Source: a virus (lineage: Duplodnaviria > Heunggongvirae > Uroviricota > Caudoviricetes). From it: a stretch of 20,767 nt of DNA. Below the pieces are notes generated by a model. It had not been told where the DNA came from. It saw only the letters and a program-made list of their open reading frames with translations, and searched no databases. The position numbers and the translations under genes are program-made. The stretch lies in the IMG/VR virus record IMGVR_UViG_2547132272_000014, one strand, 5' to 3'. Positions 3,575 through 20,027 of the stretch are shown here, piece after piece (positions within the stretch are counted from its first letter, which is position 1; the number at the start of each line of letters is the position of its first letter).

Positions 3575-3615
3575 ACAATCTCGACCCTACAAATGATAAC
3601 AATGACGAGGACAAC

Positions 3616-4800: not shown

Positions 4801-4949
4801 TTCTGCTACAAACTTAACGGGTTTTAAATGCTTTTAAAAAGTGTTTTATCCTTGCCCGTTTTCCTCAATTTGTTCTCATCTGTTGTGTTCGGTTTTGTTG
4901 TGGTTATTGCTGATTAGCTAACAGCATACGCCCCGCCAAAACGAGGCGC

Positions 4950-5600: not shown

Positions 5601-5648
5601 TTTCTTTCCTTCTAACGTGTTGATTTACATGTGCTTTCTTCAAAAAGA

Positions 5649-5752
5649 CTTTCTTTTCACCAAAGAAAGAAAAGAAAGCTTGTAATTTTCTATTTGTGGA
5701 TCAATACTTATATCCGAAGGGATAACACGGCGGTGTTATCCGCACGGATAAC
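5649..5752. promoter_or_regulatory. Divergent repressor/ner control region with candidate operators
   Basis: Inverted repeat CTTTCTTTTC (5649-5658) / GAAAAGAAAG (5669-5678); palindrome GATAACAC-GGCG-GTGTTATC (5721-5740) plus a third GGATAAC half-site at 5746-5752; located between divergent regulatory genes. Confidence 0.4.
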
Positions 5753-5768
5753 TTTTAAGGGTAACCTA

Positions 5769-6005
5769 ATGATGGTTAGAAATGAAGTAATGAACAAAGA
5801 CTGGCACCGCGAGTACATCGTTGCCGCTGTGCACACCAAAGGTTTTACATTGCGTGAACTTTCTGAACGCGCTGGTCTAAAAAAAGACTCTTTAAAAAAT
5901 GCACTGTATCGCTCATGCCCTAAATATGAACGCATCATAGCCGATGCTATTGGTGTGGAACCTGCGGAGATCTGGCCAAGCCGGTATGCCAGTAAGGCGG
6001 CGTAA
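5769..6005 (+). CDS. ner: Ner-like DNA-binding protein (Mu Ner / Nlp family), 78 aa
   Basis: ORF track 5631..6005 trimmed to ATG 5769 (AAGGG at 5757-5761); sequence KDWHREYIVAAVHTKGFTLRELSERAGL...IIADAIGVEPAEIWPSRY resembles Mu Ner (…DWHRADVIAGLKKRKLSLSALSRQFG…IWPSRY, from memory). Confidence 0.75.
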   Translation: MMVRNEVMNKDWHREYIVAAVHTKGFTLRELSERAGLKKDSLKNALYRSCPKYERIIADAIGVEPAEIWPSRYASKAA

Positions 6006-8047
6006 TGTTTTATTCAGCCAATGAGCTGGCCGGTCTTCCTGGTTTGCCCGGTACAGTTCAGGGGGTGCGCTGGACGCTCAATCGGATCACAGAGACGCAC
6101 CCAGAATGGAAGCGCAAGCGCGAAGGCACCAAAGCATTCGAGTATCACATCGACTGCCTGCCCGCTGAAGCGCAGAAAGTTTTACGTAAGCGCCTGACTC
6201 ATCAGGTCCTGGAAGATGCACAACTGCCCGCCGTAGTTGAGCAGAAAGCAGTTAAAAACGTCGCCGTTCGCGATGAACTGGAGGTGATGGTCAAATGCCC
6301 GGAGCTGGCATTACGCGAAGTCCAGTCACTGACCGACAAGCAAAAGGCCATCGCTGATGCGCGGATATTGCTGGCTACTGAAGTGCATAAGCTGCGCGAG
6401 TATGCCGGAATGACCAGGAAGGCCGCTTTAAAGCACATCGTTGATGGTGTGCGCATGGGGGCGTTACCTGACCGCATTATCGAAGCAGCGAATACTGCAA
6501 ATGCACGTCAGGGAAAGCGAACCGGTGTCAGCACCGGCAGCCTGGATAGCTGGTACTCCAGCTGGGTGATGGCGCGCGGTGATGCCAATCAGTTACTGGC
6601 GTTACTGGCTCCCGGTCATCATAAGGGAACACCGTGGGAGCAGGTCTGGTGGTTGAGCGATTTCTTTATGTTCTATCGCTCATGGAAGCGCCCGACTGTT
6701 GAATATGCGTATCGTGAGTTTTCAGCCTGGTGGCATGAAAAACACGCGAATGATGCGGGAATGCTGGCGGCACTGCCTTCAGTTCACGCAGTAAGACGGG
6801 TGTTAAGCAGCGTCCCGGTGATTGTTAAAGAGCGTTTCCGCTCCACCGGTTCAGCCTGGCGTTCGCTCAATCCCTTTGTGCGGCGCGACTGGACATCATT
6901 ACCGGTTAATGCGGTATGGGTCGGGGATGGTCACTGTATGAAAATGACCGCGTTTAACCCCCTGACCGGCAATATTTTCCGGCCAGAAGTGACGCTGGTT
7001 ATGGATGCGGGGCAACGCTTTGTTGTGGGCTGGTCACTGTCCCTGTCGGAGAACGTGATAGCTGTTGCTGATGCGTTGCGTTACGGCATGGCACAGCACG
7101 GGATACCGCTGATTTATTACTCCGATAACGGGGGCGGCGAAAAAAACCGGGTGCTTGATGCCGATATTACCGGGATTCTGCCCCGTCTGGGTGTGGAACA
7201 TCACACGGGGATACCAGGTAACCCGCAGGGGCGCGGGGTGATTGAACGGGCAAACAAAGGAATACCCAAAGACGTGGCTCTGAGTTTCCAGACGTACTGC
7301 GCAAGGGATGCAGACAAGGAAACCGTAATGATGCAGCAACGGATTATGCAGTCAGCCATTAAGGCCACCCACAAAGGGAAAGAGCTGACAAAACGGCAGG
7401 TTAAGGCGAGGGATGAAATCCCTACCTTTGAGCAACTGATGGCAGCCATAGAGCTGGAGGTCAGACGCTATAACAACCGGCCACACAGCAGCCTTCCTCG
7501 CAAAGAGGATGGCGAATATTACAGCCCGGCAGCGTATCGCCGGAAACTGATAAAAGAGCAAAAGGCTGAAATCGACATGCTGTCGCCGGAAGAACTGCAT
7601 GAAATGTTCAGACCGGAAGTGACGCGCAAAACATTTCGCGGGGAAATTCAGTTATTCAACAATATTTATTACTCATATGAGCTGGCCGCAGAGCACGGGA
7701 ATGAAGTCAGGGTCAGTTACGATATTCATGATGCAAACAGCGTCATTGTCCGGCGGGCTGATGGCTCTTATATCTGCGATGCCATCTGGAACGGTAACAA
7801 GGTTGATGCCTTCGCTAAACCAGTTATCGAGCAAAAACTGGAGAAACGCGTCAGGGGCCGCATTGCACGGGCCACGCAGAAAATCGAAGAAGCTAAACGC
7901 GAGCTTACCCCGGCCATTACGCAGAAGCCTGACTTTAATCTGGGATATGGACTGGAGCGCCCGGAGAAAAAGGAAAAAGAAGAACTTTATTTATTCGCAT
8001 CTGAACGCGAACGCAATTTAAAGAAAAACGGCACAAACAACCGTTAA
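6005..8047 (+). CDS. MuA-like DDE transposase, 680 aa
   Basis: Start overlaps the ner stop (TAATG); N-terminus ANELAGLPGLP resembles the MuA N-terminus (ANLPGLPKT); candidate DDE residues in WVGDGH, YYSDNGG and GRGVIER; size and position match Mu A. Confidence 0.85.
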   Translation: MFYSANELAGLPGLPGTVQGVRWTLNRITETHPEWKRKREGTKAFEYHIDCLPAEAQKVLRKRLTHQVLEDAQLPAVVEQKAVKNVAVRDELEVMVKCPELALREVQSLTDKQKAIADARILLATEVHKLREYAGMTRKAALKHIVDGVRMGALPDRIIEAANTANARQGKRTGVSTGSLDSWYSSWVMARGDANQLLALLAPGHHKGTPWEQVWWLSDFFMFYRSWKRPTVEYAYREFSAWWHEKHANDAGMLAALPSVHAVRRVLSSVPVIVKERFRSTGSAWRSLNPFVRRDWTSLPVNAVWVGDGHCMKMTAFNPLTGNIFRPEVTLVMDAGQRFVVGWSLSLSENVIAVADALRYGMAQHGIPLIYYSDNGGGEKNRVLDADITGILPRLGVEHHTGIPGNPQGRGVIERANKGIPKDVALSFQTYCARDADKETVMMQQRIMQSAIKATHKGKELTKRQVKARDEIPTFEQLMAAIELEVRRYNNRPHSSLPRKEDGEYYSPAAYRRKLIKEQKAEIDMLSPEELHEMFRPEVTRKTFRGEIQLFNNIYYSYELAAEHGNEVRVSYDIHDANSVIVRRADGSYICDAIWNGNKVDAFAKPVIEQKLEKRVRGRIARATQKIEEAKRELTPAITQKPDFNLGYGLERPEKKEKEELYLFASERERNLKKNGTNNR

Positions 8048-8065: not shown

Positions 8066-8959
8066 ATGAGTTTAATTACGCAATTAAATGACGTAATGGC
8101 CCGTCGCGGCTATACGCAAACCCACGTCGCCCGTGCTATTGGTCGTAGCAGCGCCGTTATCAACCAGTATTTACAGGGTAAATATCAGGGCGATATGGCT
8201 GATATTGAAGAACGCATTTTCGCCTTTGTGACCCGTGAGCGGGAAAAGGAAAACAGCCGCCGTATTAAAGCGAAATTTGTTGCCACCGGTATGGCTGCCA
8301 AAGGACTGGAGGTGTTGGCCTATGCTCACCTGGAATGTGAAATCTGCGTACTGTATGGCGCGGCAGGTCTTGGCAAAACAATGATTCTGCGTGAATACGC
8401 CGCCAGAAACCGGGATGCGGTCCTGATTGAAGCCGACCCGGGCTATACAGCCAGAACACTGCTTGAGGAGCTGTGCCGCCAGCTGGGGGTAAAAGTTCGC
8501 GGCAATATCCACGAACTGATTGATGCATGTGTGCGAGAACTGCGTGATTCCGGTCGCCTGCTGATGGTGGACGAGGCTGAACTGCTCCCCTATCGCGCAC
8601 TGGAGGTTCTGCGCCGTCTGCATGACAAAGCGGGTATCGGGATTGTCCTGGCGGGTATGCCACGCCTTCTGATTAACCTCAAGGGACGTCGCGGTGAGTT
8701 CGCCCAGTTATACAGCCGTGTGGCGCTGGCGCTTAACCTGGGCGATACGCTGGCGCAGGAAGATTTTAACCAGATAGCCACCGGGCTGATGCCGGAAGCA
8801 GCAGAACCGGAAATCAGCGAGGCGCTTTACGTACGCTCGCTGGGTAATGCCCGCCGCCTCTTCAAACTGGCGCGCGGTGTGTACCGGATTTGTGATATCA
8901 GCGATGCACCGGTCAGTGTGCAGGCCATTGATAAATTCGCAGAAATGTTAATTCACTGA
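8066..8959 (+). CDS. MuB-like AAA+ ATPase (transposition target DNA activator), 297 aa
   Basis: N-terminal HTH-like segment, Walker A GAAGLGKT, Walker B-like LLMVDEAE; immediately downstream of the transposase as in Mu. Confidence 0.75.
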   Translation: MSLITQLNDVMARRGYTQTHVARAIGRSSAVINQYLQGKYQGDMADIEERIFAFVTREREKENSRRIKAKFVATGMAAKGLEVLAYAHLECEICVLYGAAGLGKTMILREYAARNRDAVLIEADPGYTARTLLEELCRQLGVKVRGNIHELIDACVRELRDSGRLLMVDEAELLPYRALEVLRRLHDKAGIGIVLAGMPRLLINLKGRRGEFAQLYSRVALALNLGDTLAQEDFNQIATGLMPEAAEPEISEALYVRSLGNARRLFKLARGVYRICDISDAPVSVQAIDKFAEMLIH

Positions 8960-9198
8960 TGGAGAACAAGACGATGGACAAGCAGACCATTAACGCCGTC
9001 CGTTCCCGTGCCCGTGTGGCCATCCACACCACTGGCGGTCGTGTAACGGGGCAGCATCACCGTTTACCTGTGGTTTATGCCTGCCCGCCCGTGGGTGGTC
9101 CTGTATGGCCGGTAACGGAAATCATCCAGACATTCAGCGGCCTGCGCCGCGTGGTGAAAACGTCCTGTATCGACGGCTGCACCGTCGTATGGCAGTAA
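8959..9198 (+). CDS. Hypothetical early protein, 79 aa (alternative start ATG 8974)
   Basis: ORF overlapping the B stop (TGATG); GGAG at 8961-8964 would serve ATG 8974; Cys-containing; no family recognised. Confidence 0.35.
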   Translation: MENKTMDKQTINAVRSRARVAIHTTGGRVTGQHHRLPVVYACPPVGGPVWPVTEIIQTFSGLRRVVKTSCIDGCTVVWQ

Positions 9199-9213
9199 AA
9201 CGAGGAACTGAAA

Positions 9214-9405
9214 ATGTCATTAGAGCTTGAGTTAACCTTCAGCCTGGACAGGCCTGGTAAACCGGAGAAAGCTGTCGCGACGTATCAGTTGCCGCCTGAT
9301 GTCACGGGAGAGCAGGTTTCCGACATTATCATAAAAACTCACTGTTTTATGAACGAAATTATTTTTAAATCGTTTGATTTCAAAGGAGAAAAACATGGCG
9401 GTTAA
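9214..9405 (+). CDS. Hypothetical early protein, 63 aa
   Basis: ATG 9214 preceded by GAGG; the 3' third of the ORF runs into AT-rich DNA, so the C-terminus may be fortuitous. Confidence 0.3.
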   Translation: MSLELELTFSLDRPGKPEKAVATYQLPPDVTGEQVSDIIIKTHCFMNEIIFKSFDFKGEKHGG

Positions 9406-9610
9406 GTTAGAAGTAATTATCTATACCAATGAAAAAGGCAGGGTTTTAACCCAGATTACAGGAAGTTATTTGAAGGATGGCGCTTCTGAAAGGGAGTTTC
9501 AGGTGGCAACAGGATTACATGATGTTATCAAGGAAGCACTGAGAAATGACTACAACGGCGTGAATATTTTTTCTGAAAACGCTGCGCCCTGCGCACATAA
9601 CACAAATTAA
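9395..9610 (+). CDS. Hypothetical protein encoded in an AT-rich block, 71 aa
   Basis: ORF track 9374..9610 (TTG) trimmed to ATG 9395 with GGAG at 9385-9388; about 37% GC by eye versus about 55% in flanking phage genes. Confidence 0.35.
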   Translation: MAVKLEVIIYTNEKGRVLTQITGSYLKDGASEREFQVATGLHDVIKEALRNDYNGVNIFSENAAPCAHNTN

Positions 9611-9639
9611 TCTGTAAATATCACTGAGGTAATTTAATT

Positions 9640-10284
9640 ATGACGACTGAAAATAAAGTTAAGCAATACACGAAAACTCAGGCACCTGAAGGTTACTGGG
9701 TGGATGCCCGTGGCGTAATGACACCTGAAAGCCTTATCAAAGATATTGACCGCGACCGCGAGCAGCTGGTCGGTGAGCTGGTGGAGATGGTGATTGCTGC
9801 CTCCGCCTCACTGCGTGAACTGAAACTGCGTGCGTTTGGTGATATTCAGGCGTTTATTGACCTGTCGGCGGAGAAATACGGCGCTGTGAAAGGCGGTAAA
9901 AAAGGGAATATCACGCTTTACAGCTTTGACGGGCGTTACAAGATTCAGCGCGCCATGCAGGACCGTATCGCGCTTGATGAACGCATTCAGACCGCGAAGG
10001 CGCTGATTGATGACTGTCTGGCTGACTGGACGGAAGGCGCACGCCCTGAAATTAAGGCCATCATCAGTGAGGCATTCAGCACGGACAAGGAAGGCAACAT
10101 CAACACCGGTCGCGTTCTGGCTCTGCGTCGTCTCGATATTACGGAGGAACGCTGGGATAACGCCATGAAACTGATTGGTGAAGCCGTCCAGGTGGTTGGT
10201 AGCAGAAGCTATATCCGCGTGTATGAGCGCGTCGGTGATTCTGATGAATACCGCGCAATCCCGCTTGATATTGCAGGGGTTTAA
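9640..10284 (+). CDS. Conserved Mu-like phage early protein (DUF3164-like, from memory), 214 aa
   Basis: Clean ORF with codon-like composition in the early region; length and general sequence character recalled as the DUF3164 family seen in Mu-like prophages; function unknown. Confidence 0.45.
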   Translation: MTTENKVKQYTKTQAPEGYWVDARGVMTPESLIKDIDRDREQLVGELVEMVIAASASLRELKLRAFGDIQAFIDLSAEKYGAVKGGKKGNITLYSFDGRYKIQRAMQDRIALDERIQTAKALIDDCLADWTEGARPEIKAIISEAFSTDKEGNINTGRVLALRRLDITEERWDNAMKLIGEAVQVVGSRSYIRVYERVGDSDEYRAIPLDIAGV

Positions 10285-10285: not shown

Positions 10286-10519
10286 ATGCATCAGGATATC
10301 AAAGAGTACAGAGCCAGAAATAGTTGCGCGGCGTATTCGCTGGGCGCGTCCAGAGCAGAACAACGCGGCGATTATGCCGAGGCTGAAAAGCTGTGGCGTA
10401 AGGCAGCGCAAAGCCCGTGTAGCACCCTGCGCCGCATCTGGGCAGAACACCGGGCACAGTTCTGTGCCAATGCTCACCAGAAAGGATGGAAGCCGATTCA
10501 TGAACGCGAAACGCTTTAA
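10286..10519 (+). CDS. Small hypothetical protein, 77 aa, possible small helical regulator
   Basis: ORF track 10175..10519 trimmed to ATG 10286 (overlaps the upstream stop, TAACATG); segment AEAEKLWRKAAQ...RRIW weakly recalls PerC/ANR-type small regulators; unverified. Confidence 0.35.
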   Translation: MHQDIKEYRARNSCAAYSLGASRAEQRGDYAEAEKLWRKAAQSPCSTLRRIWAEHRAQFCANAHQKGWKPIHERETL

Positions 10520-10691
10520 TCAGTTATATCCGCCTGGTACTCGTTTCATGCACATTGCACATCAGGCGGTGCGTGGTGGTCGGGTGGTAAAAACTGTTGC
10601 ACCGGCCAGAGATTTTAAATGTGGTTGTGTGGTTGAAATTAATGTCGAGCCTTATTTCGTAAAAGTCGAAACACTGAAAGCAGCGCATTAA
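10500..10691 (+). CDS. Small hypothetical protein, 63 aa
   Basis: ORF track 10374..10691 trimmed to ATG 10500; overlaps the upstream gene by 20 nt; start uncertain (alternative ATG 10470). Confidence 0.3.
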   Translation: MNAKRFNQLYPPGTRFMHIAHQAVRGGRVVKTVAPARDFKCGCVVEINVEPYFVKVETLKAAH

Positions 10692-10771
10692 TTTAATTTG
10701 TTTTTAATTGTTATTTAAAACAGGCGTAAACCCGCCGGGGCTGGCTTACGCCTGAATCTGAGGGATTCATT

Positions 10772-11488
10772 ATGGAAAATAAAAGCAAATACATTGCCAA
10801 AATCAAAAAACTGTTACGCCTTGCCAGAGGAACATCAAGCCCGGAAGAAGCCGCTAACGCTATTGCAAAAGCCCAGGCTTATATGCGCCAGCATGGTATC
10901 AGCGAAAACGACGCGGAATTGTTCGACATTCAGGAAGCTGCCAGCGCGGGTGCGCCGAGTGATGCCAGTACGCCGCCGCGTTATATGCACATCCTGTGTG
11001 ACCTGGTATGTAAAGCCTTCGGTGTCGAGTGTTACATCTCAGGTGAATACCGGGCTTCTGGTTCACTCAAACGTTACGTTCGTTTTTATGGTCCTGACAG
11101 CCGCCCGGAAATTGCGGCATACGCGTTTGATGTGCTTTCCCGTCAGATGATGGCTGAACGTAAAAAATATCAGGATAAACACTGCAAACGTTGCGGCCCG
11201 TCCACGCGGGTAGCCCGTGGCGACCAGTTCTGCGAAGGCTGGGTCTTTGGTGTCCGTGATGTCATTGCGGTGTATGACGTCTCCCCGGAAGAAAAAAGTC
11301 GCCTTGAGCTTTACAGAAAGAACCTGCACAGCACGAAAGGGCTGCGCGACGGGGATATGCGCACAGCTAAAGCGTGCCGGGGTGCAGAGTTTGCCGCTAC
11401 TGCCGGTTTTATCGCCGGGAAAAACGCCAGGCTGCATCAGGGGGTTAATGGTCAGAGCAACAGACCACTGGCATTGGGGAGGGTGTAA
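10772..11488 (+). CDS. DUF2786-like protein with C-terminal Cys cluster, 238 aa
   Basis: ATG 10772 with GAGGGA at 10760-10765; N-terminus KIKKLLRLARGTSSPEEAANAIAKAQAYMRQHG matches the remembered DUF2786 N-terminal signature; HCKRCGPSTRVARGDQFCEGW suggests a metal-binding ribbon. Confidence 0.5.
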   Translation: MENKSKYIAKIKKLLRLARGTSSPEEAANAIAKAQAYMRQHGISENDAELFDIQEAASAGAPSDASTPPRYMHILCDLVCKAFGVECYISGEYRASGSLKRYVRFYGPDSRPEIAAYAFDVLSRQMMAERKKYQDKHCKRCGPSTRVARGDQFCEGWVFGVRDVIAVYDVSPEEKSRLELYRKNLHSTKGLRDGDMRTAKACRGAEFAATAGFIAGKNARLHQGVNGQSNRPLALGRV

Positions 11489-12857: not shown

Positions 12858-13045
12858 TGAAAAACCGTAAGGCAAGACTGCTGATAGCAAAAACCGGGCA
12901 GCTTATCCGTATCTCAAATCGGCTTGTTGTTCGCTATAGATATCTTGGTTTTAGGGAGTGGTCATCTATTCGTTTTTACGGTGTCTGGCGAAACAGAAGC
13001 GCAGCCCAAAACCGCTGGAAAAATCACAGAGGGACAACACGATGA
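12854..13045 (+). CDS. Small basic Arg/Trp-rich protein, 63 aa
   Basis: ATG 12854 with GGAG at 12844-12847; highly basic composition. Confidence 0.3.
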   Translation: MMKNRKARLLIAKTGQLIRISNRLVVRYRYLGFREWSSIRFYGVWRNRSAAQNRWKNHRGTTR

Positions 13046-13227
13046 AAACTATCACTGTAACGGTTGAAATCGACGTTCCTGATAACGCAACGGACAATGA
13101 TATTGCTGATTTTGTCGATGTCGAGTATGGAGAGTGCGGAAAAATGGCACTTGATAACCCATGCCGGACAGATGGAACGGAAATACTCGATGCCAGATGG
13201 GAACACGGACCTGATTACGCGGGGTGA
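13042..13227 (+). CDS. Small strongly acidic protein, 61 aa
   Basis: ORF track 12958..13227 trimmed to ATG 13042 (GAGGG upstream; ATGA overlap with the upstream stop); 10 Asp + 5 Glu against 4 Lys/Arg by my count. Confidence 0.4.
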   Translation: MKTITVTVEIDVPDNATDNDIADFVDVEYGECGKMALDNPCRTDGTEILDARWEHGPDYAG

Positions 13228-13231
13228 AAAG

Positions 13232-13483
13232 ATGAGATGGGTTGACATTTTTATTATCGCTCTGATTGTTACGGGTATTGCGCTTTGTGTAACAACTAAC
13301 AAGGCTTCTGATGATGCGGAAAGTGGGCATTGCGTGGTAAGGAGAAATTTCATCAAAACCATTACGCATTGTGATGATGGAAGCGCCACCGTGACCAGCG
13401 GGGATAAGTTTATTTATTGCTCTGCGGGGAAAAATGGCACGCCATCCTGTCATGAAGTGACGCTCGGTGATGGTGATAAATAA
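13232..13483 (+). CDS. Small membrane-anchored Cys-containing protein, 83 aa
   Basis: ORF track 13064..13483 trimmed to ATG 13232; hydrophobic segment WVDIFIIALIVTGIALCV followed by a soluble domain with four more Cys. Confidence 0.45.
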   Translation: MRWVDIFIIALIVTGIALCVTTNKASDDAESGHCVVRRNFIKTITHCDDGSATVTSGDKFIYCSAGKNGTPSCHEVTLGDGDK

Positions 13484-13563
13484 TTCACCACATTGAGCAA
13501 ATAACAATCAAGCGCAGACCAAAACATATGTTTTGGTCTGCCAAAAGTAGTGTTTTGGTCATT

Positions 13564-13842
13564 ATGAAGATTGAACAAGTCGGAATGGCAGCTTTCAGGC
13601 AACAGGCTGAAAGCGGTGGCGTGGATGAGTTCGTCGTGCAGCGGTTCGGTGGTGTGTATCACCTCTTCGCTGTGAATCGCCGCGCCGGGGTGTCCTATTT
13701 TCTACAGGAACGCCGTGGCGATTACAAGACGTGGCTGTCTCTTGACCGTGCCGCCGCGTTCCTGTCGGGGATTGGCGTTTCACGTTTTACCGTGCGTTTT
13801 GAGGATAACAAACATGCTGAAAAAGATGATCGGAGCCATTAA
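13564..13842 (+). CDS. Hypothetical protein, about 92 aa, start uncertain
   Basis: Codon-like ORF 13528..13842 but no convincing RBS at any in-frame start (13528, 13564, 13587); overlaps the GemA-like start by 29 nt. Confidence 0.3.
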   Translation: MKIEQVGMAAFRQQAESGGVDEFVVQRFGGVYHLFAVNRRAGVSYFLQERRGDYKTWLSLDRAAAFLSGIGVSRFTVRFEDNKHAEKDDRSH

Positions 13843-14209
13843 AGCCGGTCAGGCGTATCTGGGGTGGGATGATGCCCTTTATCGCCAGACGCTGGCCCGT
13901 CTGACCGGTAAAACCAGCACCACACGCTGCAATCTCGATGAACTGCGCATCATCCGGGAATACATGCACGAACAGGGATTTCCGCGCAAAGCGCCCGCCG
14001 GTAAAGGTCGCCGCCCCCGTGTTGCAATGAGCAGAAAATCGGTATTATCCAAAATTGAGGCGTTGCTGGCTGATGCCGGTCGTTCCTGGGCGTATGCGGA
14101 AGGACTGGCATCTCACATGTATAAGCAACATGTGATCGAATGGCTGACGGATGAACAGCTTTTTGGGGTGATGGTGGCGCTGGTTAAAGATTCAAGGAGA
14201 CGTAAATGA
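13814..14209 (+). CDS. GemA-like protein (Mu gp16 / DUF1018-like), 131 aa
   Basis: ORF track 13715..14209 trimmed to ATG 13814 with GAGGA at 13801-13805; N-terminus KKMIGAIKAGQAYLGWDDALYRQTLARLTGKTSTTRCNLDELRIIREYMHEQGF matches the remembered GemA-family pattern; lies just upstream of the Mor-family gene as gemA does in Mu. Confidence 0.55.
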   Translation: MLKKMIGAIKAGQAYLGWDDALYRQTLARLTGKTSTTRCNLDELRIIREYMHEQGFPRKAPAGKGRRPRVAMSRKSVLSKIEALLADAGRSWAYAEGLASHMYKQHVIEWLTDEQLFGVMVALVKDSRRRK

Positions 14210-14544
14210 AAAAACTGTTATTACTTATTCTGGCTTTATGTTTTACAGGGATATCCCATGCTTCTGATTCAGAGGAAGATTTGATCAAAAAAACATTACA
14301 GGGCGATTATCAGGCACAACGTAATCTGGCTTATTCATACATGAATGGCTGGGATGATATTTCAAAGGATATCATCAGAGGATGCGCTCTCAGGAAGGTT
14401 ATTCTCTTGACACAAGCCAAAGCTGACATTGGCGATTATGGAAATGAAGCCATAGATTGCCGAAAAGTGCATCCAACAGATAACCAGAAAGTATGGGAAT
14501 ATGTCAGAGGATACCTGGTGTTGATAAACGAGAATAAAAAATAA
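14206..14544 (+). CDS. AT-rich cargo gene encoding a secreted/periplasmic protein, 112 aa
   Basis: ATG overlapping the GemA-like stop (ATGA), AAGGAG at 14194-14199; signal peptide MKKLLLLILALCFTGISHA/SD; about 32-37% GC in the two 60-nt stretches I counted, versus about 55% in neighbours. Confidence 0.5.
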   Translation: MKKLLLLILALCFTGISHASDSEEDLIKKTLQGDYQAQRNLAYSYMNGWDDISKDIIRGCALRKVILLTQAKADIGDYGNEAIDCRKVHPTDNQKVWEYVRGYLVLINENKK

Positions 14545-14551
14545 TATGAAC

Positions 14552-14581
14552 AAAAACCTTCGCAGGCGCGGAGGTTTTTTA
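14552..14581 (+). terminator. Rho-independent terminator at the end of the early operon
   Basis: AAAAACCT ... AGGTTTTT inverted repeat around a GC-rich loop (tcgcaggcgcgg), followed by a T-run; directly after the stop at 14544. Confidence 0.55.
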
Positions 14582-14585
14582 TGGT

Positions 14586-14614
14586 CTGTACAGGCGATCA
14601 TGTATGGCTATAAT
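14586..14614 (+). promoter_or_regulatory. Candidate middle promoter (Pm-like) for the Mor-family gene
   Basis: Perfect -10 hexamer TATAAT at 14609-14614 with a poor -35 (TGTACA at 14587-14592), as expected for an activator-dependent promoter; 30 bp upstream of the mor-like start. Confidence 0.35.
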
Positions 14615-14643
14615 AACAGTAAGTTACTACCGGAGACGCCATC

Positions 14644-15111
14644 ATGCAGACCTTCAGTGAAACAGATCTTCGCGATGCGCAGGCACTGCTGCCCGACTCC
14701 GTGCAGCAACTGATTAGCGTGATTGGCTTCCCCGCCCTGACCCGGTTGATTCGTTCTTTTGGTGGCGTGACGTTAAGCGGTAAAACCGGCGCACACGCTG
14801 AACGCACCGGCGGCGTCCATGCCCTGTTACATGATGTGCTGACCGAAGACGAAATCAACAAACTGATCCGCTTTCTTGGCGGTGCTCCGTTTTACATTCC
14901 CCGTTGCGATCATGCGTTACGTGCCCTGCGTAACACCCGTTTTATGGCTGATTTACAGCGGCATATCAGGGACGGATTCTCACACCGGCAGGCGCTGGCA
15001 CTGCTCTGTCCCCGCTACGGGATTTCAGATCGGTACGCATGGCAGCTGATACACCGACGACAAAAACAGACTTCGCTGAAAAGCCCCACCCAGGTGGGGC
15101 TTTTTGATTAA
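14644..15111 (+). CDS. mor: Mor/C-family transcriptional activator, 155 aa
   Basis: GGAG at 14631-14634; C-terminal region LGGAPFYIPRCDHALRALRNTRF...LALLCPRYGISDRYAWQLIHRRQ matches the Mor/C pattern (GG.VYIP ... YG.S...VY.I..R); positioned after the early terminator as mor is in Mu. Confidence 0.65.
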   Translation: MQTFSETDLRDAQALLPDSVQQLISVIGFPALTRLIRSFGGVTLSGKTGAHAERTGGVHALLHDVLTEDEINKLIRFLGGAPFYIPRCDHALRALRNTRFMADLQRHIRDGFSHRQALALLCPRYGISDRYAWQLIHRRQKQTSLKSPTQVGLFD

Positions 15112-15138
15112 TGGGCCTCAGAAAAAAGGAGACACGAA

Positions 15139-15426
15139 ATGATGCGTTCTGACACCGATATCGACTATGCAGTACTCGGTGAATATACCGCATTTTCAGA
15201 CAAGGCCCGGGATGCAGCCCGTCGCCGACATGCTGAAATGTGCAATTTATCCAGTTACCTGGCGAAACAGGCCCAAAGCCCGGAATCAGTAACGAATCAT
15301 GATGAAGTGCTGTCAGCCGTAAACAGAATGATTGACGCAGAACGGGAAATGCGTAATGCCGTGGAAAGAGCTAACCTGCTGGCGCGGGCATGTTATAAGC
15401 CACCATTAAAACTCGCTTCCCTTTAA
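15139..15426 (+). CDS. Hypothetical protein, 95 aa
   Basis: ATG 15139 with AAGGAG at 15125-15130; no family recognised. Confidence 0.4.
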   Translation: MMRSDTDIDYAVLGEYTAFSDKARDAARRRHAEMCNLSSYLAKQAQSPESVTNHDEVLSAVNRMIDAEREMRNAVERANLLARACYKPPLKLASL

Positions 15427-15613
15427 TCCATCCAGATAATCAACCTGCTGGGGGTGCTGAACACCCCCAGCAGTACCCACCACACCAGACCGTTTACCCT
15501 GTCCACTCAGACCACAAGGCACCTTAAGGGATAGCGCCCTGCAAAAGGCTTTTGTGCCTTTGACAGGGTGTTATTTACGGGCCGTCAGTGGCTCAGATTT
15601 ACAGGAGAAACTC

Positions 15614-16027
15614 ATGTCTGAACCCTTATCAGGCGGCGGGGCTGTGGCAGTCACCATCGGTGGTGCCAGTGTGTTTGGTCTTCTCACCAATACCGATTTC
15701 GGGGTCGTGGTGGGCGCGTTTGCCGGGGCGCTTTTTGTTGTCACGCAGCAGAAAGAAATCCCGGTATGGCGAATGGCTATTCACCTGCTCGTCGCGTTTG
15801 TGGTTGGCGTTCTGGGGGCTGGCGTGGCTGCGTCACTGATGCAGTGGCTGACCCATTACAACGACAAACCGCTTGATGCATTGTGTGCGGTCGGTGTCTC
15901 GGCGTTATCCATCAAGATACTGACCTTTTTTTATCAGCAGGAAATCAAAGTCCTGCTCGGTATGTTCTCAAAACTGTTCAACCTCGTATCAAAGTTGTGC
16001 GGTGGAGGGGGAGAAAATGGAAAGTAG
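15614..16027 (+). CDS. Multi-pass membrane protein, lysis-cassette candidate (holin/antiholin-like), 137 aa
   Basis: ORF track 15554..16027 trimmed to ATG 15614 with AGGAG at 15603-15607; about four Gly/Ala-rich hydrophobic segments; lies directly upstream of the endolysin. Confidence 0.45.
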   Translation: MSEPLSGGGAVAVTIGGASVFGLLTNTDFGVVVGAFAGALFVVTQQKEIPVWRMAIHLLVAFVVGVLGAGVAASLMQWLTHYNDKPLDALCAVGVSALSIKILTFFYQQEIKVLLGMFSKLFNLVSKLCGGGGENGK

Positions 16028-16295
16028 CCTTGCCGGTATTGTGAATGTCTGGTTGTGTCTCGCCATTGTGCTGGGGTTGTTTGTGTATCGCCGCCACGGT
16101 GCGGCGCATAAACCGATGATTACCTGGCTGGCGTACTGGCTGATGCTCGGTTACATCATCATCCCGTTCCGCTGGCTGTCCGGTACATACACGCACTCCA
16201 GCTGGCTGGTTGTGGCGCTGAATCTGGTTTTCTGTGCGCTTATCGTGTGGGCGCACGGGAATTTGTCAAAAATCCTTTCGTTACTGCGGAGGTAA
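16017..16295 (+). CDS. Three-TM small membrane protein, holin candidate, 92 aa
   Basis: ORF track 16002..16295 trimmed to ATG 16017 with GGAGGGGGAG upstream; three hydrophobic segments (IVNVWLCLAIVLGLFVY, ITWLAYWLMLGYIIIPF, WLVVALNLVFCALIVWA); ends 2 nt before the endolysin start. Confidence 0.45.
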   Translation: MESSLAGIVNVWLCLAIVLGLFVYRRHGAAHKPMITWLAYWLMLGYIIIPFRWLSGTYTHSSWLVVALNLVFCALIVWAHGNLSKILSLLRR

Positions 16296-16297
16296 AT

Positions 16298-16675
16298 ATG
16301 TCGGGAAAATTCCGTTTCAGTCAACGTAGCGAGAAAAATCTGGCTGGCGTAAAGCCACAACTGGTGGCGGTTGTACGCCGTGCGCTGGCGTTGTCGGACG
16401 TCGATTTTGGTATTACCGAAGGTTTACGCACGAAAGAACGTCAGAAACAACTTGTCGCTGAAGGCAAGAGCCAGACCATGAACAGCCGTCACCTTACTGG
16501 CGATGCCGTTGATGTCGTGGCTTACGTTGGTAGCACCATTTCATGGGACTGGCCGTTATACGAAAAAATCGCCCGTGCCTTTAAACAGGCTGCCGCAGAG
16601 CTGGGTGTCGCCATCGAATGGGGCGGAGACTGGAAAACGCTGAAAGATGGGCCTCATTTCCAGTTAAAACGCTGA
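16298..16675 (+). CDS. Endolysin, peptidase M15 family (zinc D-Ala-D-Ala carboxypeptidase-like), 125 aa
   Basis: ORF track 16247..16675 trimmed to ATG 16298 with GGAGG at 16288-16292; M15-type motifs SRHLTGDAVD (His..Asp metal ligands) and DGPHFQ (second His). Confidence 0.7.
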   Translation: MSGKFRFSQRSEKNLAGVKPQLVAVVRRALALSDVDFGITEGLRTKERQKQLVAEGKSQTMNSRHLTGDAVDVVAYVGSTISWDWPLYEKIARAFKQAAAELGVAIEWGGDWKTLKDGPHFQLKR

Positions 16676-16891: not shown

Positions 16892-17098
16892 GTGAGCATT
16901 ATCAGATTTACAGAATACAGAGGTTCAGGAGGTGCTGGCGCTGTCATGGTGCTTGCTGAACGCATCACCCATTTTTACCGCCAGTACGGTACACATGATG
17001 GCACTGTCATTGAACTGGATACCGGGAAAAACGTGTTTGTTCTTGAAAATCCCGACGAAGTTCAGCGCAGGATTGAACAGGCTCAGAAGGACACTTAA
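16892..17098 (+). CDS. Hypothetical protein, about 68 aa, start uncertain
   Basis: ORF track 16856..17098 starts at a GTG inside the upstream gene; GTG 16892 is an alternative; no family recognised. Confidence 0.25.
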   Translation: MSIIRFTEYRGSGGAGAVMVLAERITHFYRQYGTHDGTVIELDTGKNVFVLENPDEVQRRIEQAQKDT

Positions 17099-17598
17099 TG
17101 GCGTGGTCACAGGATATCAGGGACAAAGTCCGTAACGGGTACATCTTTGACCAGCTTCCGCTGGATATCGTCGCCATGAAGTACGCCGTGCCGCACGACA
17201 CCGCGCGGCGCTGGAAAACGCAGGCGATGAAGAACGGCGACGACTGGGACAAGCTGCGGGCCGCGCACGCGCTCGCCGGTGACGGGCTGGAAAGTGTCGC
17301 CCGCACCGTGCTTATCAGTCTGGTGGTGAAGTGTCAGACGACACTTGAACGGCTGAACCAGAACCCGGACATCCCGCCGCAGGAGTCCGTCGAACTGCTG
17401 GCGAGTCTGTCCGACAGCCTCAGTAAGGCGGTGGCCAGTAGCAAAAAAATCCTGCCGGAAACCGACCGGCTGGCCACGGCACTGGAAGTGGTGCAGCGGC
17501 TCGGCGCGTTCATCAAGGAGCGTCACCCGGCACAGTATGCCCCGTTTCTTGAGGTGCTCGAAGGCTTCGCTAAAGAGCTTGAGGATAATTTCAGTTAA
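17098..17598 (+). CDS. Mu gp27-like protein (DUF1804-like), putative small terminase subunit, 166 aa
   Basis: Start overlaps the upstream stop (TAATG); N-terminal HTH-like region; position two genes upstream of the large terminase as in Mu; family assignment from memory. Confidence 0.5.
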   Translation: MAWSQDIRDKVRNGYIFDQLPLDIVAMKYAVPHDTARRWKTQAMKNGDDWDKLRAAHALAGDGLESVARTVLISLVVKCQTTLERLNQNPDIPPQESVELLASLSDSLSKAVASSKKILPETDRLATALEVVQRLGAFIKERHPAQYAPFLEVLEGFAKELEDNFS

Positions 17599-17644: not shown

Positions 17645-18385
17645 ATGCAAAAACAGATTATTGGTAACGCAACGTTGTATTGCGGTGATGTTCTTGATGT
17701 GCTGCCAGCGTTATCTGAACGTTTTGATGCCGTCATTACCGACCCGCCTTACAGCAGTGGTGGCACACACAAATCAGACCGCAGCATGGCCCCTTCGGAC
17801 AAGTATGTCGGTCACACTCAGTATGCCGAGTTCACCGGCGATAACCGCGACCAGCGCAGCTGGGCGTTCTGGTGTTCCATGTGGATTTCTCATGCATTGC
17901 ACAGGCTGAATCCCGGCGGTTATTTCATGGTGTTCAGTGACTGGCGACAACTACCGGCGCTTACCGATGCATTTCAGGCCGGTGGTGTGCTGTGGCGCGG
18001 TCTGGTTGTCTGGGATAAAACGCTTGCTTCCCGTGCGCCACACACCGGCTATTTCCGGCATCAGGCCGAGTATGTGGTCTGGGGCAGTAACGGAAAACTC
18101 GACAAATGCCCGCACGGTGGCCCGTTCCCGGGTGTGATTACGCAGCGTGTTGTCCCGTCCGAAAAACTTCACATGACCGCAAAGCCGGTTCAGCTGATGG
18201 CCGAGCTGGTTAAACCGCTGGCACCGGATGCGCACGTTCTCGATCCGTTTATGGGAAGCGGCACCACCGCCATCCCTGTACTTGCCCGTGGCGGACGGTT
18301 TACCGGCATTGAAATGACTAACCAGTATTTTGATATCGCCTGCGCACGTCTCGAAAAAGCGCAGGCAGAAGCAGCGCAGGTGTGA
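17645..18385 (+). CDS. DNA methyltransferase (N6-adenine or N4-cytosine, beta-class motif order), 246 aa
   Basis: Catalytic motif IV DPPY (VITDPPYSSGG) near the N-terminus and AdoMet motif I FMGSGTT near the C-terminus; no adjacent restriction endonuclease gene. Confidence 0.8.
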   Translation: MQKQIIGNATLYCGDVLDVLPALSERFDAVITDPPYSSGGTHKSDRSMAPSDKYVGHTQYAEFTGDNRDQRSWAFWCSMWISHALHRLNPGGYFMVFSDWRQLPALTDAFQAGGVLWRGLVVWDKTLASRAPHTGYFRHQAEYVVWGSNGKLDKCPHGGPFPGVITQRVVPSEKLHMTAKPVQLMAELVKPLAPDAHVLDPFMGSGTTAIPVLARGGRFTGIEMTNQYFDIACARLEKAQAEAAQV

Positions 18386-18386
18386 C

Positions 18387-20027
18387 GTGGCAAAACGTAA
18401 ACTTTCCATTAAAGAGTTTCAGAGAAGCCTGCAGGAGTACATCGCCAACCTCCGCCAGACCATCGAGGCTGAATGTCTGGGGTTCGATGTTAACCCGCAG
18501 GCCACACAGGCCCGCCGGGCGGCAGTCTGTGACCCGGTGACGGGCTACGATTATTTTGTCGAAAACTATTTCCCGCATTACGTCCGCAACCCGGCAAAAA
18601 GTGAGCTGCATAAATACCTGTTCAGCCGTCTGCCACAGGTTGTGGCAAGCCCGGACCCGGAGAACGACGCCATCGCCGCCCCCCGTGGTGAAGCAAAATC
18701 CACGCTGGTGACGCAGCTGTTTACCCTGTGGAACATTATCCGGGCCATTAAGCATTACCCGGTCATCATTATGGACAGTATCGACCAGGCTTATCCGATG
18801 CTGGAAGCCATCAAGGCTGAACTGGAATTTAACCCCCGTTTAAAAAACGATTTCCCGGAAGTGTGCGGACAGGGGCGTGTCTGGCGTATGGGGACCATCG
18901 TCACGGCCAACAATATCAAGGTGACCGTTGCCGGTAGTGGTAAAAAACTGCGTGGTCTGCGCCACGGTCCGTACCGTCCTGACCTGGTCATCCTCGACGA
19001 CATCGAGAACGACGAGATGGTGCGTAACCCGGAGCAGCGCGACAAGCTGCATGACTGGCTTACCAAAACCGTGATGCCGCTGGGCGAGGCTGGCGGTAAA
19101 ACCGATATTATTTATATCGGAACCATCCTGCATTACGACTCCGTGCTGTCGCGCACACTCAATAACCCGATGTGGAAAACAGCCCGCTTTAAGGCTGTTA
19201 TTCAGTGGCCTGCCAACATGAAGCTGTGGGACGAGTGGGAAGAACTCATCCGCAATAAACAGCCGGAAGCGGCGGAGGCACTTTACCGACAGAACGAGGC
19301 TGAGATGCTCGCCGGGTCGGTGGTGTCATGGGCGGCGCGTCCCCTGCTGGCGCTGATGAAAATCCGTGTCCGTGATGGTCACGACACCTTTGATTCTGAA
19401 TACCAGAACGACCCGGTCAGCGGTGAAGATGCGCTGTTTGCGGGCTGCATTAAATTCTGGGTTAACCGTCTTGATGAATGGGTGTTTTATGGTGCTGTTG
19501 ACCCCAGTCTCGGGAAGAAGAATAAAAACCGTGACCCGTCGGCCATTCTCGTGGGGGGCTTTAACCGCTTTACCGGCATTCTGGATGTGGTTGAAGCCGA
19601 TATCCGCCGACGTCTGCCGAATAAACTTATCGAAGACGTGATTAAGTATCAGCGGGAATATCACTGCCTGTGCTGGTCGTTTGAGTCCGTCCAGTTTCAG
19701 GAGTTTCTGCGTACCGTGCTGGTTGAGCGTTCGGCGGCGCTGGGCGTGCCGGTTCCGGCGCTGCCGGTCATCCCGCTGGAGGATAAGGCGCTGCGCATTG
19801 AGTCCCTTCAGCCGCATATGGCCAACGGCCTGATTCGTATCAGTCACACACATCAGACACTGATTGACCAGCTGCGCCACTACCCCAAAGCTGACCACGA
19901 TGATGGCCCGGACTGTTTGCACATGCTGTGGACGCTGGCGGTTTCGCGTAGCGCAAAATTTCAGATTCACACCCCACGCAGCACCGGGCGTGACCGTGGC
20001 GGGCGTTTTGGTTCAGGAGGATGGTAA
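18387..20027 (+). CDS. Terminase large subunit (Mu gp28-like), about 546 aa, start uncertain
   Basis: P-loop-like APRGEAKST in the N-terminal ATPase region and acidic nuclease-type motifs (VDPSLGK, HDDGPD) in the C-terminal region; no in-frame ATG before the P-loop, so the start is GTG 18387 or TTG 18330. Confidence 0.7.
   Translation: MAKRKLSIKEFQRSLQEYIANLRQTIEAECLGFDVNPQATQARRAAVCDPVTGYDYFVENYFPHYVRNPAKSELHKYLFSRLPQVVASPDPENDAIAAPRGEAKSTLVTQLFTLWNIIRAIKHYPVIIMDSIDQAYPMLEAIKAELEFNPRLKNDFPEVCGQGRVWRMGTIVTANNIKVTVAGSGKKLRGLRHGPYRPDLVILDDIENDEMVRNPEQRDKLHDWLTKTVMPLGEAGGKTDIIYIGTILHYDSVLSRTLNNPMWKTARFKAVIQWPANMKLWDEWEELIRNKQPEAAEALYRQNEAEMLAGSVVSWAARPLLALMKIRVRDGHDTFDSEYQNDPVSGEDALFAGCIKFWVNRLDEWVFYGAVDPSLGKKNKNRDPSAILVGGFNRFTGILDVVEADIRRRLPNKLIEDVIKYQREYHCLCWSFESVQFQEFLRTVLVERSAALGVPVPALPVIPLEDKALRIESLQPHMANGLIRISHTHQTLIDQLRHYPKADHDDGPDCLHMLWTLAVSRSAKFQIHTPRSTGRDRGGRFGSGGW

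Follow-up and report, generated by a model that had tools for sequence, protein, structure and literature searches.

At positions 14206–14544 of the 20,767-nucleotide stretch of phage DNA analyzed here (the window), the plus strand carries an open reading frame of 112 codons and a stop codon, whose product is identical to WP_000734972.1 (annotated "hypothetical protein") and which we refer to as the cargo gene. The first-pass annotation had called it at these same coordinates and had placed it between a GemA-like gene and a terminator, and both neighbors are borne out. The upstream gene (13814–14209, plus strand) matches Pfam GemA (E = 1.5e-18) and phrog_286 (E = 9e-37), and its stop codon overlaps the cargo-gene start as ATGA (14206–14209). 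A Shine-Dalgarno sequence, AAGGAG (14194–14199, plus strand), can be read 6 nt 5' of the ATG, within the gemA coding sequence. Downstream, an intrinsic terminator (14552–14580, plus strand) with the stem CCUUCGC/GCGGAGG, an A/U extension and then UUUUUUA ends the gemA-cargo transcript; its hairpin (14552–14579) has a folding energy of -15.8 kcal/mol and a z-score of -3.5, and none of 200 shuffled sequences was as stable. Beyond it, and outside the cargo, lies a σ70-like promoter, TGTACA-16-TATAAT (14587–14614, plus strand, 10 of 12 matches), which is present in all alleles and precedes the gene for a Mor/C-family transcription activator (14644–15111, plus strand; Pfam Mor, E = 1e-6; phrog_836, E = 9e-42). 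In phage Mu, gemA (8233–8784) is followed directly by mor (8781–9170) with a 4-nt overlap, confirming the earlier statement that Mu has no gene at this point.

The low GC content noticed earlier also stands, with 37.8% in the cargo gene (36.3% at third codon positions) against 53.3% in gemA, 55.3% in mor and 51.7% across the window, placing it within the lowest 2.2% of all 339-nt segments of the window. This composition and the absent annotation are the only points that favor a spurious reading frame or a decaying, functionless remnant in an AT-rich spacer, a reading that is refuted by the conservation data and to which we assign a negligible chance. The dN/dS of the frame is 0.20 when compared with an allele of 87% identity (0.08 for both gemA and mor) and ranges from 0.20 to 0.35. 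The Shine-Dalgarno sequence is strong and the start is coupled, full-length homologues occur in several phyla, nine residues are invariant in an 80-sequence alignment (A5; Gly-33, Asp-34, Tyr-35, Arg-39, Asn-40, Ala-42, Cys-60, Asp-77, and Cys-85), and the fold is predicted with confidence. Judged by these sequence comparisons, the frame is a real gene under purifying selection. An RNA gene does not explain the region 13000–15600, where an Rfam search of both strands returned weak matches below the gathering threshold that are due to the terminator hairpins.

A consensus scan for a promoter inside 14100–14205, where the first-pass annotation had suggested looking for one active in the lysogen, detected none. 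By eye, just weak 3-of-6 hexamers are visible at the 3' end of gemA. The DNA specific to the cassette begins at most ~25 nt before the cargo ATG. Given this short leader, the overlap of the start with the gemA stop, and the empty promoter scan, the gene is best placed as the last cistron of an early or semi-early transcript. From the gene layout we infer that the ATGA overlap couples its translation to that of gemA and that it is expressed without a promoter of its own, and it is therefore to be regarded as an early lytic product rather than as a demonstrated lysogenic-conversion gene. The product would thus be made together with GemA after induction or infection, from a transcript closed by the cassette's own terminator.

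The N terminus of the protein has the organization of a Sec signal peptide. Residues 1–19 (MKKLLLLILALCFTGISHA; 14206–14262, plus strand) are divided into n-, h- and c-regions, and a rule-based reading gives MKK, LLLLILALCFTGI, and SHA, followed by SD after the predicted signal peptidase I cut. The positive n-region MKK precedes a 13-residue hydrophobic core (Leu-4 to Ile-16; Kyte-Doolittle hydrophobicity 3.06 over residues 4–14) and a c-region (Ser-17, His-18, Ala-19) with small residues at -3 and -1, so that the cleavage after ISHA proposed earlier is reproduced with the cut after Ala-19. The length of the h-region lies within the 7–15 residues expected under the Sec/signal peptidase I rules, and the protein has neither a twin arginine nor a lipobox. 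A lipoprotein reading was rejected on the latter ground, the residue before Cys-12 being leucine. Homologues carry equivalent N termini, and a hydrophobic segment precedes the domain in 206 of the 220 family members that have the domain motif. In the AF2 model the signal segment is a low-confidence helix (residues 3–13). The protein had been described as secreted; a Sec-type export signal is indeed present, but in a Gram-negative host it directs the protein to the periplasm, and nothing points beyond. After Sec export, removal of the 19-residue signal peptide would leave a 93-residue domain in the periplasm.

This mature domain (14263–14541, plus strand) is predicted to consist of five helices forming about two Sel1-like repeats (SLRs). 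Although no family had been recognized at first pass, the protein belongs to phrog_5882, which it matches over its full length (E = 1.7e-56, residues 1–112 on profile positions 1–114 of 114). The family comprises 409 representatives at E ≤ 1e-3 (over 400 clusters when grouped at 50% identity), nearly all of them exported, and its sequences carry a readable SLR signature (...A.kGDyqAqrNLAysY..G......a.CAW..v...). The Pfam Sel1 match stays below the gathering threshold (15.8 versus 30.7 bits, E = 0.022), as it does for other family members, and profile comparison with solved structures finds Sel1 proteins as the best matches, weakly (E = 0.002–0.19). The model is an antiparallel helix-pair repeat fold that can be superimposed on solved SLR proteins. 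The structure-based search of the mature domain proposed earlier gave Sel1-like matches in Foldseek, the nearest including EsiB of uropathogenic Escherichia coli and Legionella LpnE and LceB. On the strength of the model, the mature product is an all-helical, two-repeat SLR domain. The two invariant cysteines, Cys-60 and Cys-85, probably form a disulfide. Searches of Pfam, NCBIfam, and PADLOC with the cargo protein and long family members yielded the subthreshold Sel1 match only, nothing significant came from the BFVD viral structure library, and no study of a homologue turned up in literature or accession searches. By tblastn, the deposited phages contained a single match (Mannheimia phage 3927AP2) and plasmids only Mu-like prophages residing on them.

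The gene is very probably optional cargo of a Mu-like (transposable) prophage, whose insertion site appears to be the host gene prpC. In ~58 complete E. coli genomes with this prophage region, the presence or absence check suggested earlier found the cargo gene in 13, an unrelated 159-residue exported protein in 23, and an empty slot in 19. Homology between the cargo protein and this alternative was rejected (hhalign probability 35% over 25 columns). An alignment of five alleles delimits the cassette-specific DNA to 14183–14573 (plus strand), comprising the last gemA codons, the Shine-Dalgarno sequence, the cargo frame, and the terminator stem; the sequence on either side is common to prophages with an empty slot, and the flanks of prophages whose slot is empty or holds the 159-residue protein are 96–98% identical to those here. 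The empty allele differs at the end of gemA and carries another terminator of its own, and the terminator of the alternative-cargo alleles is nearly identical to the one in the window. Neither direct nor inverted repeats that would suggest a recombinase site were found to flank the cassette. The holin WP_001372993.1 is identical after all three slot states. The cargo gene is not core in Mu-like phages, being present in 13 of the ~58 E. coli prophages of this kind and absent from Mu. A conserved homologue in all Mu-like phages would have spoken against an accessory gene; distantly related Mu-like phages (Pasteurellaceae, ~40% identity) do have one in the same place, but it is absent from close relatives, which indicates recurrent cargo and not a core function. 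Carriers include Shiga toxin-producing E. coli (STEC), for example E. coli STEC313 (locus FNE82_RS11560), poultry isolates, and commensals and pathogens among the Pasteurellaceae; strain tcmA_3 is one with the empty slot.

The term moron (defined in PMC4378225), under which the gene had been introduced, fits in part. A single gene of deviant composition lies between genes that directly adjoin each other in related phages (the 19 empty-slot E. coli genomes, and Mu) and is followed by a cassette-specific terminator, but the upstream promoter that belongs to a moron is absent. It is optional and compositionally foreign and yet, with a coupled start and no promoter, not self-contained.

The wider family is closely associated with transposable phages. 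We retrieved redundant contigs with the motif GDYQA[QL]RN and used crude gene calls of our own, so that the context percentages are approximate; on this basis, transposable-phage hallmarks surround 81 of 112 fetched loci (~72%). In such phages the gene has one of five places: behind gemA, behind mor, ahead of the lysis genes, between the genes for the tape measure and gp43, or immediately downstream of the c repressor. Its GC content is lower than that of the flanks in 87% of 111 loci, and at 38 of 82 distinct loci a terminator-like hairpin lies within 90 nt of its 3' end, compared with 13 of 410 control windows. An S24/CI-type repressor gene is directly upstream on the same strand in 7 loci, with a gap of 8 nt in one of them (L098). 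These seven copies lie in the lysogeny transcript, in which λ has rexAB. Some copies adjoin an MmeI-type restriction enzyme and others SduA_C and HEPN_AbiU2 genes; copies are also found in tail modules and in non-phage islands, some of the latter within runs of small exported proteins. The phrog_5882 profile also recognizes distant members in Beta- and Zetaproteobacteria, and free-living bacteria (e.g., Mariprofundus, Dechloromonas, Chitinimonas, and Acidobacteria) equally carry the family.

The best explanation of these data as a whole, to which we give a probability of about 0.4, is that the gene is optional early cargo encoding an exported SLR protein that serves envelope-level protection. 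The functional part, a protective or exclusion factor that acts at the envelope by protein binding, is put forward tentatively. In the manner of other SLR proteins, it would bind another molecule through a concave, conserved polar surface (Tyr-35, Arg-39, Asn-40, Asp-77, and Asn-80), and the infected or lysogenic cell would thereby be protected against attack at the envelope. T4 Sp and Imm and T5 Llp are small early-gene proteins that keep other phages out at this level, and our first choice is that superinfecting phages would likewise be excluded at cell wall penetration or DNA entry. The tie to transposable phages, the copies in repressor transcripts, and the restriction, SduA_C, and HEPN_AbiU2 neighbors speak for exclusion, as does the fact that the alternative cargo of the same slot is likewise exported. 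Exclusion genes occur in the Mu-like Pseudomonas phage Fc02 both within the transcript of the repressor and at an early position after ner (PMC9936078). Neutralization of incoming effectors by SLR proteins of the periplasm also has precedent, and two of them, PA5086 and PA5087, are among the Foldseek matches. Against the protective reading, an SLR fold, as a general-purpose scaffold for binding, does not by itself identify the target, and many copies lie directly before lysis genes, possibly pointing to a role in lysis. Expression at this locus is early lytic, so that a benefit to the stable lysogen would need a promoter that escaped detection. A stronger version, in which the phrog_5882 mini-SLR proteins form a new class of periplasmic gatekeepers, carried by transposable phages, that block wall penetration or DNA entry by competitors and the coupled slot after gemA is a hotspot for swapping exported anti-competitor cargo, is speculative and on balance unlikely.

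The position of many copies raises the alternative that the protein is an accessory of lysis timing, restraining a peptidoglycan hydrolase or a holin or spanin component until the proper time in the manner of an antiholin or lysis inhibitor. It might act on the endolysin of the phage, on a lytic transglycosylase of the host, as Legionella EnhC does on Slt, or on the lysozyme that superinfecting tails bring with them. The gene is immediately 5' of holin and endolysin genes in at least 12 gemA-mor-X loci and in 12 BcepMu-like loci, the predicted location is periplasmic, and a glycan or a muropeptide would be a fitting ligand for the conserved polar residues (Tyr, Arg, Asn, Asp, Asn, joined by Trp-62 in the majority of members). 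However, the neighboring endolysins are of five unrelated types (M15/VanY, SLT, GH108, Amidase_2, and GH19), and the same holin follows all three slot states in E. coli, which argues that lysis is independent of the cargo gene; we down-weighted the lysis-gene reading on these two grounds. In most cases a terminator stands between the gene and the lysis genes, and the copies behind repressors, inside tail modules, and in non-phage islands fit poorly with such a role, which we hold to be quite improbable.

The periplasmic location would also serve for immunity-like protection against periplasm-acting toxins such as type VI secretion (T6SS) effectors or colicins, with the protein binding the incoming effector much as the SLR immunity proteins PA5086–5088 neutralize the phospholipase PldB. 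PA5086 and PA5087 are among the Foldseek matches (probability 0.54–0.57, r.m.s.d. ~2 Å over 57–61 residues, 21–24% identity), but they match no better than other SLR proteins, and while some non-phage copies sit amid runs of small exported proteins, no toxin or T6SS gene was seen beside any copy. Toxin immunity would lead one to expect neither the strong link to transposable phages nor, in the window, the expression with lytic genes indicated by the layout, and it is very unlikely. Little probability also attaches to the original proposal, a lysogenic-conversion or host-interaction factor that acts on an animal host or on surface properties as EsiB, LpnE, and Hcp proteins do. The nearest structural matches include EsiB, LpnE, and LceB, the STEC, poultry, and Pasteurellaceae carriers are compatible with it, and 7 other phages have the family gene in the repressor transcript. 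At this locus, however, the proposal is unsupported, with no promoter in 14100–14205 and coupling to the early lytic gene gemA; a Sec signal alone would leave the protein in the periplasm, and the equal presence of the family in free-living bacteria argues against an animal-host target.

Few phage exclusion mechanisms that act in the periplasm are understood, and the cargo protein is a directly testable candidate, with 93 residues, a confident model, natural alleles with, without, and with alternative cargo in near-identical prophages, and hundreds of homologues. The family is large, is tied to transposable phages of Gamma-, Beta-, and Zetaproteobacteria, and is absent from Pfam, NCBIfam, and the literature; a function, once established, would annotate many prophages together. 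Should none emerge, the cargo gene would be one further accessory gene among many. The locus also illustrates how cargo can enter a phage operon promoterless by taking a translationally coupled position, the one that mor holds in Mu, and promoter-based screens would miss such cargo.

Compared with known systems, the cargo gene shares with λ bor and lom, with the morons of HK97, and with the regions of genomic plasticity in Mu-like phages of Pseudomonas a single inserted gene of deviant composition followed by a terminator, but it lacks the moron's own promoter and is spliced into an operon with a coupled start codon. Its family entry in PHROGs, phrog_5882, gives no function, and the family is far wider than GenBank-deposited phages. 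The cargo family shows a recognizable SLR signature in common with LpnE (6DEH), LceB (8SXQ), EsiB/c5321 (4BWR), AlgK (3E4B), and HcpC (1OUV), which are likewise exported or periplasmic; these have 4–20 repeats, in contrast to about two in the 93 residues here, and the cargo family is subthreshold for Pfam Sel1 and phage-borne. Its invariant Asp-34, Tyr-35, Arg-39, Asn-40, Asp-77, Cys-60, and Cys-85 lie outside the SLR consensus. Helicobacter Hcp proteins carry intramolecular disulfides. Vibrio SflA is membrane-anchored and regulates flagellar placement; its periplasmic domain (6IF6) is a near known system, but no relationship was detected at the sequence level and the genomic setting is unrelated. 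PA5086 and PA5087, of the Tli5 family of T6SS immunity proteins, are likewise SLR proteins of the periplasm whose whole action is to bind the incoming effector, but they are longer (264 residues) and encoded beside their toxin, whereas no toxin gene was seen next to the cargo gene. PADLOC returned no match to known exclusion or defense proteins, and Pfam only the subthreshold Sel1 match. T4 Sp and Imm, T5 Llp, and gene 10/olg1 of the Mu-like phage Fc02 (PMC9936078) are small envelope-acting exclusion proteins made from early or repressor transcripts; the cargo protein has no sequence or fold relationship to them, and for it the exclusion role is a candidate one.

The prophage in the window is Mu-like (transposable). 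Pfam and family annotation places a CI-type repressor on the minus strand (4950-5600), then a Ner-like gene (5631-6005), the MuA transposase (6005-8047), MuB (8066-8959) and, between MuB and GemA (13814-14209), early genes of the DUF3164, DUF2786 and Ead/Ea22-like types. The cargo ORF (14206-14544) lies between GemA and a Mor-family activator (14644-15111), to the right of which are two holins and an M15 endolysin. The host flank (1-4950) is the prp locus, with prpR (739-2394, minus strand), a prpB-like gene (2564-3454) and a prpC-like citrate synthase (3616-4650). Because this last gene is short, at only 344 amino acids with a Pfam match spanning 2-327 of a 357-position model, prpC appears to be the gene into which the prophage transposed, its left end lying between ~4650 and 4950. 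Other AT-rich islands of the early region (9178-9761, 10469-10926 and 13242-13580; <42% GC in 339-nt windows) are possibly extra cargo or regulatory stretches. In the late region, an N6/N4 DNA methyltransferase gene (17645-18385) between a DUF1804 gene (17098-17598) and a 565-amino acid ORF (18330-20027) is likely another accessory insertion; the 565-residue ORF occupies the large-terminase position of relatives and has no Pfam match.

That the cargo ORF is a real gene is strongly supported. An AAGGAG ribosome site lies 6 nt 5' of its ATG, which overlaps the gemA stop as ATGA, and a hairpin of -15.8 kcal/mol (beating 200 of 200 shuffles) starts 8 nt past its stop, followed by UUUUUUA. Its GC content is 37.8% (GC3 36.3%), compared with 53-55% in gemA and mor and 51.7% in the window. 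The N terminus, MKK-LLLLILALCFTGI-SHA/SD, shows the tripartite layout of a signal peptidase I substrate, as judged by rule rather than by SignalP, and contains no lipobox on the same inspection. Against an 87%-identical allele, dN/dS was 0.20 for the cargo gene and 0.08 for gemA and mor, with similar dS in all three (0.36 for cargo and 0.44-0.52 for gemA/mor); purifying selection thus acts on the cargo gene, which has stayed together with its flanks for some while. Its product is identical to WP_000734972.1, labelled "hypothetical protein" and found on 284 contigs, and its 90% cluster covers E. coli, Salmonella and E. albertii. The first-pass annotation, which had described an AT-rich gene for a secreted protein just before a terminator, at a point where Mu has none, was borne out on position, composition and signal peptide, and in Mu mor indeed follows gemA directly with a 4-nt overlap.

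The prophage DNA on either side of this site occurs, at 95-99% identity, in 58 of the 5,426 complete E. coli genomes searched. The cargo gene was present in 13 of these 58, always adjoining gemA; an unrelated 159-amino acid gene filled the slot in 23, and 19 had an empty gemA/mor junction. The proposed presence/absence comparison among Mu-like prophages thus gave a slot with three states, and the cargo gene is shown to be optional. Allele alignment confines the cassette-specific DNA to ~14183 (the last gemA codons) to ~14573 (the terminator stem). Between the two cargo types the gemA tail and coupled ATGA start are shared and the terminators nearly identical; in the empty allele the gemA C terminus differs, and the terminator (-20.9 kcal/mol) is its own. 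The alternative cargo (e.g. 2204-2683 in locus L004 and 2210-2689 in locus L005) also starts with an export signal, MMKKWLFCLVGVIFSCSALA. By profile comparison it is not homologous to the cargo protein, and it had no match in Pfam, NCBIfam, PHROG or PADLOC. This gene is confined to enteric Mu-like prophages, with 11 copies at ≥95% identity and 12 at 60-80%.

A scan of the plus strand for the sigma-70 consensus detected no promoter-like site in 13485-14586, which includes the interval 14100-14205 where a promoter search had been proposed. Given this result, the coupled start and the fact that DNA upstream of ~14183 is common to empty-slot prophages, the cargo gene is read as the last cistron of a transcript covering gemA, and its co-transcription and coupling with gemA are strongly supported. 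Transcription of this unit could begin at the early promoter or at one proximal to gemA. In Mu a semi-early promoter is annotated immediately 5' of gemA; at the equivalent position of the window lie a promoter-like site (13457-13484) and a 28-nt palindrome (13514-13541). The former, intergenic and before orf92 and gemA, reads GTGACG-16-AATAAT; the palindrome is perfect, GCAGACCAAAACATATGTTTTGGTCTGC, and a second copy of its core, CCAAAAGTAGTGTTTTGGTC, lies at 13541-13560 (20 nt, 80% identical). The stretch 13457-13563 may serve as operator or promoter of a putative orf92-gemA-cargo unit. The window's single Mor/C-family gene comes with a sigma-70-like promoter (TGTACA-16-TATAAT, the -10 being perfect; region 14587-15111) and a terminator (15079-15104) of its own, in contrast to Mu, where mor is coupled to gemA.

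The cargo protein matches phrog_5882 end to end (E 1.7e-56), which overturns the earlier statement that no family was recognisable. A word-indexed search returned nine clusters only, comprising enteric alleles and Pasteurellaceae relatives at ~40% identity. An exhaustive HMMER profile search recovered 409 representatives at 50% clustering (E ≤ 1e-3), 120 of them at E ≤ 1e-10. In a second profile search yielding 403 proteins, every named one was "hypothetical" and none had a Pfam domain, and our literature and accession searches found no study of any member. The domain is ~85 residues long. In an alignment of 80 sequences Gly-33, Asp-34, Tyr-35, Arg-39, Asn-40, Ala-42, Cys-60, Asp-77 and Cys-85 are invariant; in a more diverse one of 116 sequences Arg-39, Cys-60 and Asp-77 remain so, and Ala-30, Tyr-35, Asn-40, Ala-42, Ala-61, Trp-62, Asn-80 and Cys-85 are >90% conserved, position 62 being leucine in the window protein. 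A hydrophobic segment precedes the domain in 206 of 220 motif-bearing members, 55 of these 206 with a lipobox-like motif, and members lacking the segment look like truncated gene calls. The Sec signal is therefore conserved, and the domain is nearly always predicted to be exported. Longer members are lipoproteins of 140-420 amino acids with the domain at the C terminus. Long lipoprotein forms (150-280 amino acids) in Acidobacteria and metagenome contigs (loci L015, L023, L025 and L021) lie within runs of same-strand exported proteins without assigned function, near SduA_C, HEPN_AbiU2 and patatin-like genes, and several long members share ~150 N-terminal residues matching no family.

Sequence comparison gave no more than a hint of Sel1-like repeats: Pfam Sel1 scored 15.8 bits on the cargo protein against a threshold of 30.7, and the best matches of the family profile among solved structures were Sel1 proteins (E 0.002-0.19). 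We built a confident AlphaFold2 model from the 80-sequence alignment (mean pLDDT 90.4, >95 in the mature part; pTM 0.78), with helices at residues 23-31, 35-47, 56-69, 75-85 and 90-111. Structural comparison gave LpnE (10.1), EsiB/c5321 (9.1), AlgK (8.8), Oxalobacter Sel1 (8.5), SEL1L (8.4), the SflA periplasmic domain (8.4; 131-residue chain, r.m.s.d. of 2.3 Å over 81 residues) and HcpC (7.1). Foldseek, the structure-based check proposed for the mature domain, also matched Sel1-like repeat (SLR) proteins, with a TMq of 0.66 for EsiB and probabilities of 0.98-1.00 for AlgK, Sel1 and LceB. The cargo protein is thus, as modelled, a minimal two-repeat SLR domain; the SLR fold and the family-conserved Sec signal are both strongly supported, and the protein is predicted to be exported. 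Cys-60 in helix 4 and Cys-85 at the end of helix 5 lie on adjacent helices of the model, making a periplasmic disulfide plausible.

We fetched 112 loci, some redundant, by exact look-ups, one genome scan, one viral-contig scan and public records, and classed them with purpose-built GemA, Mor and family HMMs, checking neighbours by Pfam. Counted over redundant contigs retrieved with the motif GDYQA[QL]RN and gene-called by longest ORF, 40 loci (enteric and Pasteurellaceae) have the family gene between gemA and mor. In 12 it follows gemA-mor and precedes a terminator and lysis genes (Aquitalea, Chitinimonas, Chromobacterium, Mariprofundus and a Citrobacter plasmid-borne prophage). Another 12, from Burkholderiales and viral contigs, are BcepMu-like: a Mu-type transposase and an H-NS-like gene run leftward, and an HTH regulator, an unknown gene, the family gene, a holin and an SLT endolysin run rightward. 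In 10 (Herminiimonas and viral contigs; three on the opposite strand) it lies between the tape measure and Mu gp43-type DNA-circulation genes, and in seven (Methylobacterium and viral contigs) directly 3' of, and co-directional with, an S24/CI-type repressor, with ner and the Mu transposase diverging from it; in one of these, L098, 8 nt separate the repressor stop from the start codon of the lipoprotein. Among the other 31, some sit between a lambda-type large terminase and the adjoining head-region gene, some next to an MmeI-type restriction enzyme and some within islands that also encode SduA_C and HEPN_AbiU2. In 87% of loci the family gene has a GC content below that of its flanks (median difference -4.6 points), and a terminator-like hairpin lies ≤90 nt 3' of it in 38 of 82 distinct cases (control windows: 13 of 410). 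The gene looks to be mobile among phages, mostly transposable ones, and to settle at transcription-unit boundaries. In Pasteurellaceae Mu-like phages an intrinsic terminator brackets or directly precedes the family gene (L001 2882-3327; L007 3976-4398; L010 3955-3974), its T-run abutting the start codon in L007, so expression there must use read-through or a promoter upstream of the hairpin.

SLR domains act by binding partners, and the invariant polar residue cluster suggests a specific ligand. T4 Sp/Imm and T5 Llp are phage exclusion proteins, and by analogy with them the mechanism that we infer as first choice, tentatively (probability of about 0.3), is that, while the lytic programme runs, the cargo protein would keep out superinfecting phages. 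Five arguments favour a part in envelope-level conflict: the predicted export, the seven transposable phages in which a copy lies in the repressor operon, the copies near restriction and abortive-infection genes, the export signal likewise found on the alternative cargo of the same slot, and the precedent of the Mu-like phage Fc02, which has exclusion genes in its repressor and early transcripts (PMC9936078).

A role in lysis timing would fit the lysis cassettes that adjoin the family gene, but five unrelated endolysin types occur next to it and an identical holin protein lies behind all three slot states, making this role unlikely. The lysis cassette of the window (15614-16675) is itself mosaic relative to loci L002-L005: it has an M15 peptidase endolysin (16247-16675), as one relative, L005, has an M15 enzyme, and in close relatives the identical first holin (WP_001372993.1) is followed by a GH108 endolysin. 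Still less probable is toxin immunity; the T6SS immunity proteins PA5086 and PA5087 appeared lower down in the Foldseek search (probability 0.54-0.57). Interaction with an animal host is equally doubtful, and the family's wide occurrence in free-living bacteria argues against it. Nor does this locus, with no promoter of its own detected for the gene and a start coupled to gemA, lend support to expression in the repressed lysogen and hence to the lysogenic-conversion role first proposed.

The novelty lies in recognising the family, its fold and its link with transposable phages, in which it occupies five insertion points; the protein itself is not of a new kind, being both a phage accessory gene product and a periplasmic SLR binder. 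An own promoter is defining for morons, and the designation as a moron therefore stands in part: three other testable features were found, but the consensus scan detected no such promoter, leaving a moron-type accessory gene by genome behaviour. With SLR proteins the cargo protein shares the fold, while falling below the threshold at which Pfam recognises them.
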